DNA of 63,967 bases, the filler included, from Candidatus Methanoxibalbensis ujae (GTDB lineage Archaea; Halobacteriota; Syntropharchaeia; Alkanophagales; Methanospirareceae), in assembly GCA_026134085.1 (NCBI GenBank). It is 3 parts of 3 records of this genome, joined end to end, with 100 filler letters (N's around TTAATTAATTAA, not from the genome) between each part and the next. Parts side by side here need not be neighbours in the genome. Positions count along the whole stretch, not along the records: positions 26,318 to 51,113 come from JAOQIN010000025.1; 2 more parts are not named here. One strand, written 5' to 3'. The notes below the pieces were generated by a model. It had not been told where the DNA came from and did not search any database. It saw nothing but the letters and a program-made list of their open reading frames with translations. This document shows positions 28,693 to 32,354 of the stretch, one piece after another. The position numbers and the translations under genes were made by a program. Numbering within the stretch: the first letter of the stretch is position 1; each line of letters opens with the position of its first letter.

Positions 28693-28755
28693 TTTCCCAC
28701 ACGCTCAAGCTAATTTGCCCCCTCTCCTCGCTCTCGCCTCGCCCCTCTTCCCAGA

Positions 28756-28829
28756 CGGGCCGGGAGGGATTTGAACCCCCGACTGGCAGGTTAAGAGCCT
28801 GCTGCTCTACCGTGCTGAGCTACCGGCCC
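28756..28829 (-). tRNA. tRNA-Lys (CUU), intronless, no encoded CCA
   Basis: Reverse complement GGGCCGGTAGCTCAGCACGGTAGAGCAGCAGGCTCTTAACCTGCCAGTCGGGGGTTCAAATCCCTCCCGGCCCG folds as a cloverleaf with anticodon CTT. Confidence 0.96.
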
Positions 28830-28950
28830 ACCATTCATTATTTCACTTTTTTAAATAAAAGTGTCGCTTCATGCTCATAAGCCGATGCAAGGAGCAGGCG
28901 GAGATGGAATTCTCTAAAAAACGCCCAACTTTTTATAAGCGGATGAGGAA

Positions 28951-30270
28951 ATGAGGAATGAGATGGCGGAGCGAAGAGGCATTCAGTATTTCACGCTCTC
29001 CGAGATTGAGCCACGCATCTGGTTCATGCTCACGGGTTGCAATTTCAGATGCAGGGGATGCTTCAGACCTGCTCGTGACGGAGGAGGCGTTCTTTTAACT
29101 GCGGAGGAGGCGCTTTCTCTCGCTGAGAAGGCGTGTGAGAAGTGCTATGGTTTCTTGCCGAAGAAGGCGATGATTACGGGCGGCGAACCGACAATAAGCA
29201 GAGATTTCTTACTTTCGCTGATTTCGGGTTTAAGGGAGCGAGGATTTGAGGAGATTGTGCTTATGACGAATGGCTATGCGATAGGCGAGGATGCGAGTGG
29301 CAGTTACGCTCACGCATTGAAATCCGCAGGACTCACGGAAGTTCACATTGACATTAAAGCGTTTTCTGATGAAATTCACCGCTGGTATACTGGAAAGTCA
29401 AACAAACCTGTGCTTTCCGCTGTGAAGATGCTTTACGATGAAGGCATTGAACTGCTTGCGCAAACAATTTACATTCCAGGGATTGTTCAAGCGGATGAAA
29501 TTGAGCGAATTGCAGCGTTCCTTGCATCTATTGATGAAAACATTAAATATCGGATTAACCCATTCGCACCGACATTCGCATTTGAGCGAGTCTCAAGGGC
29601 TCCGACGATTGAAGAGATGGAGCGTGCTTACGAGGCGGCGAAGAAGCACCTGAAGAATGTGATTGTGAGCAGGAGTTGCTTCAGGGAGTTCCCGACGCCT
29701 CCGCCTCAGCGCACATGGCTCACTGTCTACCCAGACCTCACAGTGAAGCGAAGGAGCATGAAAGACCAGAACGAAGAGCGATTGCAGTGGCTTCGCCGAC
29801 CGAGGAGCAGAGTTCTCGCAGACTTTGAGCGAGAGTTAGCGTGGGATTTCAAGCTGAGGGAGCGAATTCTAAGTGCTGGAAACTCCGCCGTAGCAACCGG
29901 AGAAGCGAAAGAAGGCGAAGGTGCGAGTGGCAGCGACCACACCGTAAAGGTGAAGTTCTCCTCTGCACTGCTTCCGCTTACGAAGAAGAGGGAGCTCGTC
30001 CTGAAATTGAGCGACGGCGTCGGAGCTTCTTCTGCGCCTGCGGATGCTGCGGAAGGAGGAGCGAAGGCTCGTAGTTCAGCGACCCTTCGTGAAGTTTTGA
30101 GGCGTCTCGCAGAGATTTACGGAGAAGCGTTCAAGAAGCGTGTGTTTGACGGCTCTGCGGTGAATGAATTCGTGAATATCTCGCTGAATGGTCGCTTGAT
30201 TGATGATTTAGATGTGGAGGTGCGAGGAGGAGACGAAATAATAATACTGTCTGTGATAAGCGGGGGATGA
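28951..30270 (+). CDS. radical SAM (PflA/activase-like) protein fused to a C-terminal MoaD/ThiS/SAMP ubiquitin-like domain
   Basis: GCNFRCRGC, TGGEPT, MTNG and IDIKAF in the N-terminal part; C-terminal beta-grasp VKVKF..TLREVL..VNISLNGR..GDEIIILSVISGG-stop. Start may be 28963. Confidence 0.85.
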   Translation: MRNEMAERRGIQYFTLSEIEPRIWFMLTGCNFRCRGCFRPARDGGGVLLTAEEALSLAEKACEKCYGFLPKKAMITGGEPTISRDFLLSLISGLRERGFEEIVLMTNGYAIGEDASGSYAHALKSAGLTEVHIDIKAFSDEIHRWYTGKSNKPVLSAVKMLYDEGIELLAQTIYIPGIVQADEIERIAAFLASIDENIKYRINPFAPTFAFERVSRAPTIEEMERAYEAAKKHLKNVIVSRSCFREFPTPPPQRTWLTVYPDLTVKRRSMKDQNEERLQWLRRPRSRVLADFERELAWDFKLRERILSAGNSAVATGEAKEGEGASGSDHTVKVKFSSALLPLTKKRELVLKLSDGVGASSAPADAAEGGAKARSSATLREVLRRLAEIYGEAFKKRVFDGSAVNEFVNISLNGRLIDDLDVEVRGGDEIIILSVISGG

Positions 30271-30389
30271 CATCTGATTCTGCAGCAAAATCAGGCATCG
30301 GCTTTTCACCGCTTGACTGCTACGATTTCCATTTTGCACTTCAGGGCTCACTTTTCGTAGCGTTTTTTGTTGCTTAAGAGGTTCGGAGG

Positions 30390-31616
30390 GTGAGGAGGGC
30401 GTTGCAGTCGCTCTGCAGGTATGTAGGGACTTCGCACAGGGTAGTTCCGCCTGAGGAGACGCTGCGCCGATTTTCACCGAAATTGAGCGTTGCAGGCGTC
30501 ACGAGAATAGCAGACATCACGGGCTTGGACAGGGTCGGGATTCCAGTATTCTCTGCGATGAGACCGAGTGCGAGGAAAGGTGCGGTAAGCGTGCATTCAG
30601 GGAAAGGGACAACAGCGGTAGAGGCGAAAGTTTCAGCGATGATGGAATCGTTTGAGAGATATTCGGCGGAGATGCATTCTGAAGATTTGGTGAGAGGCTC
30701 TTTTTACGAGCTTGAAGGTGAAGGTGCGATAGACCCAAACTCGCTTATCTTGCCTGCGAAGATTGATGCTCGTAACCTCGTTTTAGAATGGGTTTCCGCC
30801 AAAAATCTGTTTGACGGCGAGGAGTATTTAGTGCCTGCGAATGCGGTTTTTCACCCTTACAACCCTTCCGATGCGGGTGCGATGCACATTTTCAGAAGCA
30901 ACACGAACGGTCTCGCATCAGGAAACACGCTTGAGGAGGCGATTCTTCACGGCTTGCTTGAGGTCATAGAGCGGGATGCGTGGAGCTTGGCGGAAGCATC
31001 ACGAAAAACAGCGGGAATAGCATGCGATTCTGTTCCTGAGAGGCTCGCAGCGTTGATTGAGCGTTTTGAGCGTGCAAACATCAAAATCCATTTGCATGAC
31101 ATCACTTCAGATATAGGCATCCCGACGGTCGCAGCGGTTGCTGACGATGTTGAGCTGTGCGATGCTGCTTTTCTTACTTTCGGCGTCGGCACGCACCTTG
31201 ACCCTTCTGTCGCAGTAGCACGAGCATTGACAGAGGTCGCTCAAAATCGTGTCGTTCAAATACAAGGAGCAAGGGAAGACATCGCAGCACAAGTGAAAGC
31301 GATGCGTTCCGTAGGCTACGAGCGAATGAAAGAAATAAACAAGCACTGGTTTTCCCCCGCTGCGATGAAATCATTTGAAGAGATTGAGGACATCTCTGCG
31401 AAAGACATCTCTGAGGACATTCAAATAACACTTGAGGCGCTGCGAAGGCGTAATTTCAAACTCGCTCTCTTCGTTGAACTCACAAGAGAAGAGCTGGGCG
31501 TGCCTGTTGTGCGTGTCATCGTCCCAGGCTTGGAACAGTTCAGCGTGGATGCCTCACGAAAAGGAAAACGCTTCTTCAAAGCACTGCGGGAGAGAAGGAG
31601 AAAACTCAATAACTGA
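30390..31616 (+). CDS. ycaO: YcaO-family protein (methanogen/MCR thioamidation type)
   Basis: GTSHRVVPPEET, GVTRIADITGLDRVGIP, GKG..SAMMESFER, SNTNGLASGN..EVIERDA and PVVRVIVPGLE. Confidence 0.92.
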   Translation: MRRALQSLCRYVGTSHRVVPPEETLRRFSPKLSVAGVTRIADITGLDRVGIPVFSAMRPSARKGAVSVHSGKGTTAVEAKVSAMMESFERYSAEMHSEDLVRGSFYELEGEGAIDPNSLILPAKIDARNLVLEWVSAKNLFDGEEYLVPANAVFHPYNPSDAGAMHIFRSNTNGLASGNTLEEAILHGLLEVIERDAWSLAEASRKTAGIACDSVPERLAALIERFERANIKIHLHDITSDIGIPTVAAVADDVELCDAAFLTFGVGTHLDPSVAVARALTEVAQNRVVQIQGAREDIAAQVKAMRSVGYERMKEINKHWFSPAAMKSFEEIEDISAKDISEDIQITLEALRRRNFKLALFVELTREELGVPVVRVIVPGLEQFSVDASRKGKRFFKALRERRRKLNN

Positions 31617-31818
31617 CGCCGATTTGGCTGTGAGGCGTGGGCAACACTAAGCGAGTAGGAGCAAACAGGGGCGGGGCAAGGCGAGGGGGGGGAAGGGAAG
31701 AGGGAGGGGGAAGAGAGCAGCAATGCGGGTAGAGTGTCGTGGAATGGTAGGCGAGAAAAGTAAATGCGGGGAGGAAGAGAGAGGTTTTATATAGAGAGAA
31801 TTTGAATTTAAATGTGAA

Positions 31819-31959
31819 ATGGTGAAGTGTTCGCGGTGCGGTCGGGAAGTGAAAGACTACATAGAGATAGAGGGACGGATTCTCTGCGAGGACTGCTATT
31901 TTGAAGAAATGGAATCAGCAGGCGTGGATATGACTGGCGAGGCGAGTGGTGGGGGTTGA
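31819..31959 (+). CDS. 46-aa zinc-finger micro-protein with acidic tail ending GGG (not in the ORF track)
   Basis: MVKCSRCGREVKDYIEIEGRILCEDCYFEEMESAGVDMTGEASGGG; TTTTATATA box at 31785-31793. Confidence 0.7.
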   Translation: MVKCSRCGREVKDYIEIEGRILCEDCYFEEMESAGVDMTGEASGGG

Positions 31960-32003: not shown

Positions 32004-32354
32004 CTAATACATCTTGAATAACCGCTCCTTAGGTGTCTCTTTACGCTTCTCCTCCTCTATCTTCTTAATTTCGCCCAGGAATTGAAAAACTGCCTTCGTG
32101 CATGGAGAGTCTGTGTTGAGCATCACGACCCTTGACTTCCCGATGTCAAGCTCCTTGAGGACGCCCGCACGGACAAGGTCATTCACAACCTTGCGAACGG
32201 TCACATGGCTCTTCCCCAACTGCTTCGTCAGACCCGTGATGTTGTCAAAATATGCGTTGTCGTTGTAGAATAAGAGCAGCAGTTTGAGGTGCGTGCTGTT
32301 CCCGAATATCCGCCGAAGTGTTTCCATCCACTCTCCATTTCCAATATTCTCCAT
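32004..32354 (-). CDS. winged helix-turn-helix transcriptional regulator, divergent from arlB
   Basis: IFGNSTHLKLL..ITGLTKQLGKSHVTVRKVVNDLVRAGVL..IGKSRV. Confidence 0.75.
   Translation of the reverse strand: MENIGNGEWMETLRRIFGNSTHLKLLLLFYNDNAYFDNITGLTKQLGKSHVTVRKVVNDLVRAGVLKELDIGKSRVVMLNTDSPCTKAVFQFLGEIKKIEEEKRKETPKERLFKMY

Follow-up and report, generated by a model that had tools for sequence, protein, structure and literature searches.

The stretch of DNA studied here (the window; 63,967 nucleotides, filler included) comes from the genome bin of Candidatus Methanoxibalbensis ujae (GCA_026134085.1; G000, G-numbers being genome labels) and consists of contigs C17, C18 and C43 of that bin joined end to end. 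Contig C18 (window positions 26318-51113) bears three co-oriented open reading frames (ORFs), all on the plus strand, which encode a radical S-adenosylmethionine (rSAM) protein ending in a ubiquitin-like (Ubl) domain, a YcaO protein and a small zinc-finger protein. A first-pass annotation had taken them for a candidate sulfur-transfer or modification system, and that overall reading is partly supported. ORF reading bears out the three genes and their coordinates, and rSAM-Ubl is a real and conserved enzyme-carrier fusion that is apparently undescribed, but a dedicated three-gene system is not supported.

The rSAM-Ubl protein (28951..30270, +; 439 aa) combines, according to Pfam, NCBIfam-type models, alignment and predicted structure, a partial barrel of the pyruvate formate-lyase (PFL) activase type with a MoaD/SAMP1-like ubiquitin fold. 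Residues 27-190 match Pfam Radical_SAM (PF04055; 81.6 bits, cut-off 29.5) and include the motif CNFRCRGC, whose CxxxCxxC cluster cysteines (C30/C34/C37; 29038..29061, +) do not vary in any of the 40 aligned rows; TGGEP is likewise invariant. The true start may be the second in-frame ATG (28963, MAERR), which is where homologues start. Beyond the cluster motif only two cysteines are invariant, Cys62 (29134-29136, +) across the fused forms aligned and Cys243 (29677..29679, +) in an SRSC-x-R-x-x-P motif that the G030 orthologue and paralogue-2 sequences also have, which is not enough to hold a standard auxiliary cluster; the Pfam scan of the protein gave no UPF0004, TRAM or auxiliary-cluster domain. 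The Ubl (beta-grasp) domain spans residues ~331-439 (29941..30267, +) and finishes in a free Gly-Gly (30262-30267), the C-terminus reading SVISGG-stop. Residues 374-439 match Pfam ThiS (PF02597; 32.9 bits, cut-off 22.5), the narrower model TIGR01687 staying below its cut-off (34.9 vs 49.5), and profile matches to Ta0895, an M. acetivorans SAMP1 homologue and a MoaD-type protein agree with the predicted secondary structure. All 40 aligned rows, which had been chosen as long homologues, have G438 and G439, and an SGG end was found in 92 of the 94 homologues longer than 345 aa among 120 listed database homologues. The Pfam domains and the conserved SGG end therefore confirm an rSAM protein ending in a MoaD/ThiS fold with a free GG, and the fusion is not a product of chance or of a frameshift.

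The predicted structure of rSAM-Ubl (pLDDT 72, pTM 0.59) has its best Foldseek fold match in PFL activase (3c8f; E 6.5e-12, target TM 0.76, 21% identity). Activase models were not reached (PFLA 46.8 of 231.75, YjjW 67.2 of 250.2, NrdG2 46.9 of 131.15), nor were the archaeal MoaA model TIGR02668 (57.5 vs 325.25) and the tungsten maturase model (31.6 vs 380), and an atlas search with the rSAM returned unnamed clusters only. Replacement of MoaA was considered and rejected, as a canonical MoaA is separately encoded (over the cut-off in four of five genomes, split in G009). A TATA-like box (TTTTTATA; 28930..28937, +) lies upstream of the gene, which is weak evidence alone because the window has seven such hits where 3.2 are expected.

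Homologue names point to anaerobic methanotrophic archaea of group 1 (ANME-1; Methanophagales), with other submitter labels on some records. At E<=1e-90, orthologues were found in 59 of 66 ANME-1-family genomes, covering 14 of 14 genera, and in a sample of the phylum searched at E<=1e-45 there were matches in 41 of 42 family genomes compared with 3 of 258 others. All three of these others encode McrA/AcrA, and two have no YcaO match. When one genome of each prokaryotic species was scanned for two strict peptide patterns, an approach that reaches close relatives only, 63 loci came up (59 strong and four weak ones, the latter in Methanotrichaceae). Within the phylum the rSAM family is thus nearly confined to ANME-1, which makes the proposed link to methyl-coenzyme M reductase (MCR) or its coenzyme F430 plausible. 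Fused copies occur in 27 of the 59 genomes and the unfused form alone (~315-330 aa, with a different tail) in 30; G246 and G289, where the gene is cut by contig ends, were left out of this classing, giving 57 classifiable genomes, and the fused count takes in a pseudogene in G001, a gapped copy in G129, an N-truncated copy in G313 and the copy of G009, a genome of a different genus in which the locus recurs with a frameshift of one base in its fusion. With the GG invariant across these 27 genomes, the fusion is conserved as had been supposed. In a quick tree built from the rSAM domain, two changes account for the fused label and two unfused copies nest within the fused clade; a shared linker (WDFxLR) suggests a single fusion origin followed by loss. 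An apparent rSAM-micro-protein fusion in G129 turned out to be an artefact of an in-frame N gap.

The presence of an E1 activating enzyme (ThiF match in 26 of the 66 family genomes) goes with the fusion: 23 of 27 fused genomes have a match compared with 1 of 30 unfused-only genomes, or by genus 8 of 8 fused and 1 of 6 unfused. TfuA matches (again in 26 of 66) were seen in 21 of 27 fused genomes, that of G014 being a remnant, as against 2 of the 30 that are unfused-only. Fisher tests for fusion and E1, in which G289 went with the unfused genomes, gave p=4e-11 by genome and p=0.003 by genus; for fusion and TfuA the value was p=1.7e-8 by genome. These values overstate the association because kin are not independent and cluster by descent. 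As fused genomes keep E1, the GG end looks functional, as first proposed, and the pattern supports a live, E1-activated C-terminus. From the same counts the fusion accompanies TfuA rather than replacing it, so the idea that it stands in for TfuA fails as a general rule. It could hold for the window's lineage alone: no tfuA is adjacent to the locus, as the first-pass annotation had stated, and no TfuA match was found anywhere in G000 (89% complete) or G009 (79% complete, with one YcaO and one E1), both of which retain fusion and E1. Since no TfuA was found there and G009 has a separate moaE-ubaA-moaD operon, neither TfuA nor molybdopterin explains why the fused Ubl is retained in these lineages, and this speaks for a carrier that serves the rSAM itself or is used directly by YcaO. 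As a separate observation, a ThiF/MoeB match is missing in 40 of the 66 ANME-1-family genomes although MoaE is kept in 60, hinting that molybdopterin sulfur is delivered in this family by an E1-independent or divergent route.

Of the 58 genomes that have both genes, 18 place the rSAM gene no more than 10 kb from ycaO, and these are all the genomes in which the two share a contig. There are three arrangements: co-oriented (window and G009), convergent with an unfused rSAM gene (five genomes of genus g11) and 0.6-9 kb apart with the rSAM gene mostly pointing away (g2, g3, g5 and g14). The suggested link to ycaO is therefore non-random, but the direct co-oriented adjacency was found in C18 and G009 only. 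Recurrent neighbours of the rSAM gene are rhodanese-domain genes, ubaA, tfuA, sufS, fdhD, sufBC, mcrC and mcrBGA. Its surroundings in G177 hold ABC-ATPase genes, mcrC, the micro-protein gene, moaE, sufS and mcrBGA; in G014 and G024 it is near sufS and fdhD, and in G014 5 kb from mcrB; in genus g11 it adjoins ycaO, a rhodanese gene and, in G251 and G294, mcrB. In G002, G016, G023, G142 and G001 the fusion has a ubaA-ycaO-tfuA operon at a distance of 1-8 kb, and 10 of 56 genomes have moaE no more than 10 kb from the rSAM gene, three of them at 150 bp or less.

The ycaO gene (30390..31616, +; 408 aa, starting at GTG 30390 or TTG 30402) begins 119 bp after the rSAM gene, and its assignment to the MCR type is borne out by a score of 481 bits against TIGR03266 (cut-off 365). 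The ATP-binding residues (E86/E89/R90, N173-G178 and E182/E183/E191/E194/R195/D196) are invariant in 25 rows and the closest solved structure is M. jannaschii MJ1094 (E 5e-73). In the YcaO tree the window copy belongs with those ANME-1 sequences that are associated with TfuA; its branch there, common with G009, is long, and it has ~50% identity to its kin. It is the sole YcaO found in G009, and the target motif RLGFYGYDLQD is present in McrA of G009 and G000. On these features it is best read as an ordinary McrA thioglycine enzyme; methanogens without TfuA still produce thioglycine (PMC5589413). The same tree contains a diverged ANME-1 group of 12 sequences without adjacent TfuA (stem 0.99; L055, L056, L058-L062, L063-L067), in which the QIHGARED region is changed and a micro-protein gene lies divergently upstream in nine genomes. 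A third, long YcaO of bacterial type (595 aa) is encoded amid foreign-looking genes at G000 C10:11675-13462 (L003).

The third gene (31819..31959, +) encodes a zinc-finger protein of 46 aa (CxxC-x15-CxxC) whose tail is acidic (pI 4.3) and which ends in ASGGG. A TATA-like box (TTTATATA; 31786..31793, +) 25 bp before its ATG suggests that it has its own promoter, although this box, too, is weak evidence by itself. Homologues were found in 24 of 24 same-family relatives searched, irrespective of E1; they are usually ~78 aa long with an extra charged helix, the window copy being a short form, and among 25 genomes the C-terminus is G-A-G in 15, GGG in nine and neither in one. Of the 25 genomes, 15 have the micro-protein gene no more than 10 kb from ycaO and 10 have it adjacent, the two genes being divergent in nine of the nine other adjacent cases; mcrC or mcrB is frequently near the micro-protein gene. 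In G009 a 930-aa opposite-strand gene separates it from ycaO (L080:5910-8702, an NTPase/HEAT gene absent from the window). A profile search with the micro-protein alignment gave about eight short full-family matches followed by multi-repeat zinc-finger matches, and the atlas search gave unnamed clusters only. Its own TATA-like box, the split from ycaO in G009, the divergent order elsewhere and a GGG end in only 9 of 25 genomes speak against its inclusion in a unit with the other two genes. We regard it as a conserved, E1-independent core ANME-1 gene of the MCR neighbourhood that is unlikely to encode a precursor of a ribosomally made, post-translationally modified peptide (RiPP). A predicted complex of YcaO and micro-protein (score 0.01, mark 0.32, no folded controls) was counted for neither side. 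In most ANME-1 loci near mcrC/ycaO the micro-protein gene is followed by a gene for a ~100-aa protein (L078:17466-17771; starts MEEKKYALPIPRG) that gave no Pfam or NCBIfam match, its motif lying within 1.5 kb of the micro-protein gene in 19 of 25 genomes. A more distant CxxC..CxxC paralogue of the micro-protein is encoded at G000 C3:8607-8747 (-), directly upstream of and co-oriented with ubaA.

It should be noted that C18 is probably mis-binned and derives from an ANME-1 organism other than that of the rest of the bin. It is collinear with G009 over ~19 kb at 96% identity, whereas C17 shows only ~69-75% identity to that genome; among contigs longer than 15 kb it is the only one whose tetranucleotides are closer to G009 (0.948) than to the bin (0.848); and 8 of its 21 genes, DNA ligase included, have a second copy elsewhere in the bin (60-97% identity) compared with 39 of 1584 overall. 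The contamination estimate of the bin is 0.7%, yet C18 duplicates ligase, archaellum, YcaO and rSAM-Ubl genes. The presence of two YcaOs and two fusions in one genome was accordingly dropped as real biology because C18 is probably foreign, and other findings on C18 are affected by its foreign look. In G009, mcrD lies between mcrB and mcrG and a similar ORF occupies that place in G000, an arrangement tied to ANME-1c in a preprint (10.1101/2022.07.04.498658). The three genes are flanked upstream by a divergent tRNA-Lys(CTT) (28754..28830, -; ARAGORN) and downstream by a helix-turn-helix (HTH)-like gene (32004..32354, -) that precedes an archaellum operon; the order micro-protein gene, HTH-like gene, archaellum is found again on G000 C1, there without ycaO.

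These observations lead us to a tentative reading, to which we give a probability of roughly 0.4: three separately regulated genes of the MCR-maturation neighbourhood stand side by side in one lineage, and the rSAM protein would draw on an E1-charged thiocarboxylate that it carries itself for radical sulfur chemistry in MCR or F430 maturation. The E1 enzyme UbaA/ThiF would adenylate the C-terminal Gly, as co-occurrence suggests, and sulfur from SufS or a rhodanese would then convert it to a thiocarboxylate; such adenylation and thiocarboxylation of Ubl GG ends by E1 is established chemistry (PMC11323500). The [4Fe-4S]-SAM site, whose motif is present, would generate a 5'-deoxyadenosyl radical to act on an MCR-related substrate, and the tethered thiocarboxylate, perhaps with Cys243 as a relay, would be the source of sulfur, a choice favoured because the rSAM protein has no auxiliary-cluster motif. 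YcaO would thioamidate the McrA glycine, here probably without TfuA, and the micro-protein would be the product of a core ANME-1 accessory gene rather than a substrate peptide. Lineages without E1 and TfuA are also without the Ubl and would use free sulfide, as TfuA-independent YcaOs presumably do.

Among named targets, C17-2 of coenzyme F430 comes first; modification there would give methylthio-F430, for which a separate methyl step would be needed. Methylthio-F430 is an ANME-1 trait (PMC12413448), and the one sulfur-inserting rSAM that can be recognised in ANME-1 did not produce it, from which the authors of that study concluded that the responsible enzyme has yet to be discovered (PMC10702137). 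That rSAM-Ubl is this missing enzyme and the first rSAM sulfur insertase to rely on a tethered thiocarboxylate recharged by E1 instead of an auxiliary iron-sulfur cluster, with unfused orthologues using free sulfide, seems unlikely to us: its distribution would suit the gap, but two relatives that have only alkyl-coenzyme M reductase (ACR) carry orthologues, the fold is activase-like and a methyl step is lacking. A 311-aa methyltransferase-like neighbour was tried as an ANME-1-specific methyl step and set aside, since it is found in 33 of 131 genomes of other families and its distribution cannot single it out; the gene (L077:45-980) lies near mcrC/ycaO in 20 of 20 ANME-1 genomes and also occurs in several methanogen families, and its product is possibly an MCR methyltransferase. 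Peptidase-U32-like genes, sometimes paired, also recur near ANME-1 mcr genes (L172:2-1806, L175:10755-11813, L092:15676-16695), two of the three scanned having a Pfam match. U32 proteins are known as oxygen-independent hydroxylases, which makes these genes candidates for the 7-hydroxytryptophan of ANME-1; no paper to this effect was found in the literature searched.

Several points weigh against sulfur chemistry of this kind in rSAM-Ubl. Its activity and substrate are predictions, and its fold is closest to PFL activase, a sulfur-free enzyme. Two multi-ACR relatives without a YcaO match have close orthologues (53-57% identity), which adjoin ABC importer or Fe-S/ParA-type genes there, and many copies have unrelated neighbours such as trmJ, arsenic-resistance-like genes, moeA or a GNAT-ABC fusion; there is no link to ycaO in 40 of the 58 genomes, the two genes lying there on different, mostly short contigs. 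Of the 57 classifiable genomes, 30 carry the unfused form alone, and within the fused clade G177 C57 and G314 have lost the Ubl, so it is dispensable. Beside the dependence of kin noted above, the fusion-TfuA association is not significant by genus (p=0.10), and an E1 match is missing in 4 of the 27 fused genomes (G312, G177, G024, 97% complete, and G011, 94%), although divergent E1-like proteins may be missed, as the ThiF Pfam model gave no match in the M. jannaschii control (PMC2948915).

Somewhat doubtful, in our view, is the explanation that the fused Ubl is a ThiS-type sulfur donor for MCR thioamidation, hydrolysed by TfuA or, in the window's lineage, used directly or through an unknown hydrolase, while the rSAM domain has a separate, sulfur-free function. 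The company that the fusion keeps with TfuA and with the ubaA-ycaO-tfuA operons of five genomes fits such a donor, as do G208, G269 and G001, where a fused copy stands alongside an unfused one, two YcaOs and TfuA, as if the set had been acquired together as a module; thioamide YcaOs often use thiocarboxylated ThiS with TfuA (PMC13063428). However, six fused genomes, including the window's lineage, have no TfuA match, standalone Ubls were present in five of the five genomes checked, G000 proper has its fusion (C60) after moeA with ycaO on another contig, and nothing accounts for the welding of a YcaO donor to a radical enzyme. A Ubl that serves as a conjugation or docking tag (sampylation-type) or regulatory module, on an rSAM acting without sulfur on protein, lipid or tRNA, is rather unlikely. 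E1 dependence fits conjugation as well as it fits sulfur transfer, PFL activase acts on peptides, unfused copies often adjoin trmJ and distant paralogues adjoin geranylgeranyl reductase and RimI-like GNAT genes, but the recurring sufS, fdhD, moaE, sufBC and rhodanese neighbours point to sulfur, and the fused domain resembles MoaD/SAMP1 whereas the standalone Ubl of the unfused, E1-less G005 matches SAMP2.

The moaE genes near the rSAM gene, the position of the C60 copy of G000 after moeA, AOR genes nearby in G010 and G023 and the presence in G099 (99% complete) of only a weak standalone ThiS match would suit a MoaD for molybdenum or tungsten pterin synthesis fused to a pterin-cofactor maturase. 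We consider this quite unlikely, as MoaA is encoded separately, the rSAM scores far below the archaeal MoaA and tungsten maturase cut-offs, a standalone moaD lies next to moaE in G009 and G002, and pterin cofactors are general whereas the rSAM family is nearly ANME-1-confined. Very improbable is a RiPP-like unit in which YcaO and rSAM modify the Gly-rich tail of the micro-protein. Its proximity to ycaO, the retention of a G-[A/G]-G terminus by 24 of 25 genomes and its position in G129, where it follows the fusion immediately downstream on the other side of an assembly gap, are in keeping with a substrate, but the gene has its own TATA-like box, is divergent or interrupted elsewhere, has a tighter partner in the ~100-aa gene, stands without ycaO on G000 C1 and belongs to a core family conserved in 25 of 25 family genomes, and the only YcaO found in G009 has its McrA target there intact.

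Comparison with known systems sets out what rSAM-Ubl shares with each. It resembles PFL activase and other glycyl-radical activases in best fold, compact barrel and lack of an auxiliary cluster. Activases have a DGxGxR peptide-binding motif before the cluster motif, and CHN; in their place rSAM-Ubl has LSEIEPR and CFR, its C-terminal Ubl is an addition, and no glycyl-radical enzyme gene was found among the 21 window proteins scanned by Pfam. The proposed radical C-S bond formation is shared with the methylthiotransferases MiaB, RimO and MtaB and with LipA and BioB, with the difference that sulfur would come from a tethered thiocarboxylate and not from a second cluster. LysW-type carriers are small and acidic with a CxxC zinc finger and a flexible conserved C-terminus, EDWGE. 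The micro-protein is like them in size, acidity, zinc finger and C-terminus, but it ends in G-[A/G]-G, no LysX neighbour was seen near it and it gave no LysW Pfam match. The window YcaO is like that of the YcaO/TfuA/ThiS system for McrA thioamidation (Nayak 2017, PMC5589413) in family cut-off and ATP-binding residues, and sulfur-relay genes (thiF, sufS, moaD/E) near methanogen ycaO are already described in that paper, whereas here a carrier-like domain is fused to an rSAM, no TfuA was found in the window's lineage and YcaO is on a long branch. The archaeal MoaD/SAMP1 carriers and their fusions (MoaD-MoaE, Ubl-E1, Ubl-Cgi121; PMC2948915) share the beta-grasp, the terminal GG and E1; here, in contrast, the partner is an rSAM, and the word 'radical' is absent from the main text of that paper. 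No description of an rSAM-Ubl fusion in ANME-1 was found in the literature searched, supplements (e.g. of PMC10702137 and PMC2948915) aside, and some database entries already carry automatic names for both fusion domains.

Other genes around rSAM family members were also recorded. In G000 a GNAT-zinc ribbon-ABC ATPase fusion (C60:4523-6496) is encoded right behind the second rSAM-Ubl copy. A second activase-like rSAM of AmmeMemoRadiSam-like type (C47:3134-4177) lies near the mcr operon in G000, and such proteins (also L149, L154 and L140) pair with rSAM-family members beside ABC importers. Among 20 regions, paralogue 2 is linked to cfbA/cooT-like genes in G021 only.

The rSAM-Ubl family is thus a concrete and testable candidate for the methylthio-F430 enzyme of ANME-1, and if this is wrong it is still an undescribed enzyme-carrier fusion. 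If true, a tethered carrier would be a new way for rSAM enzymes to get their sulfur, and the family would supply a missing part for producing native ANME-1 MCR in a host.

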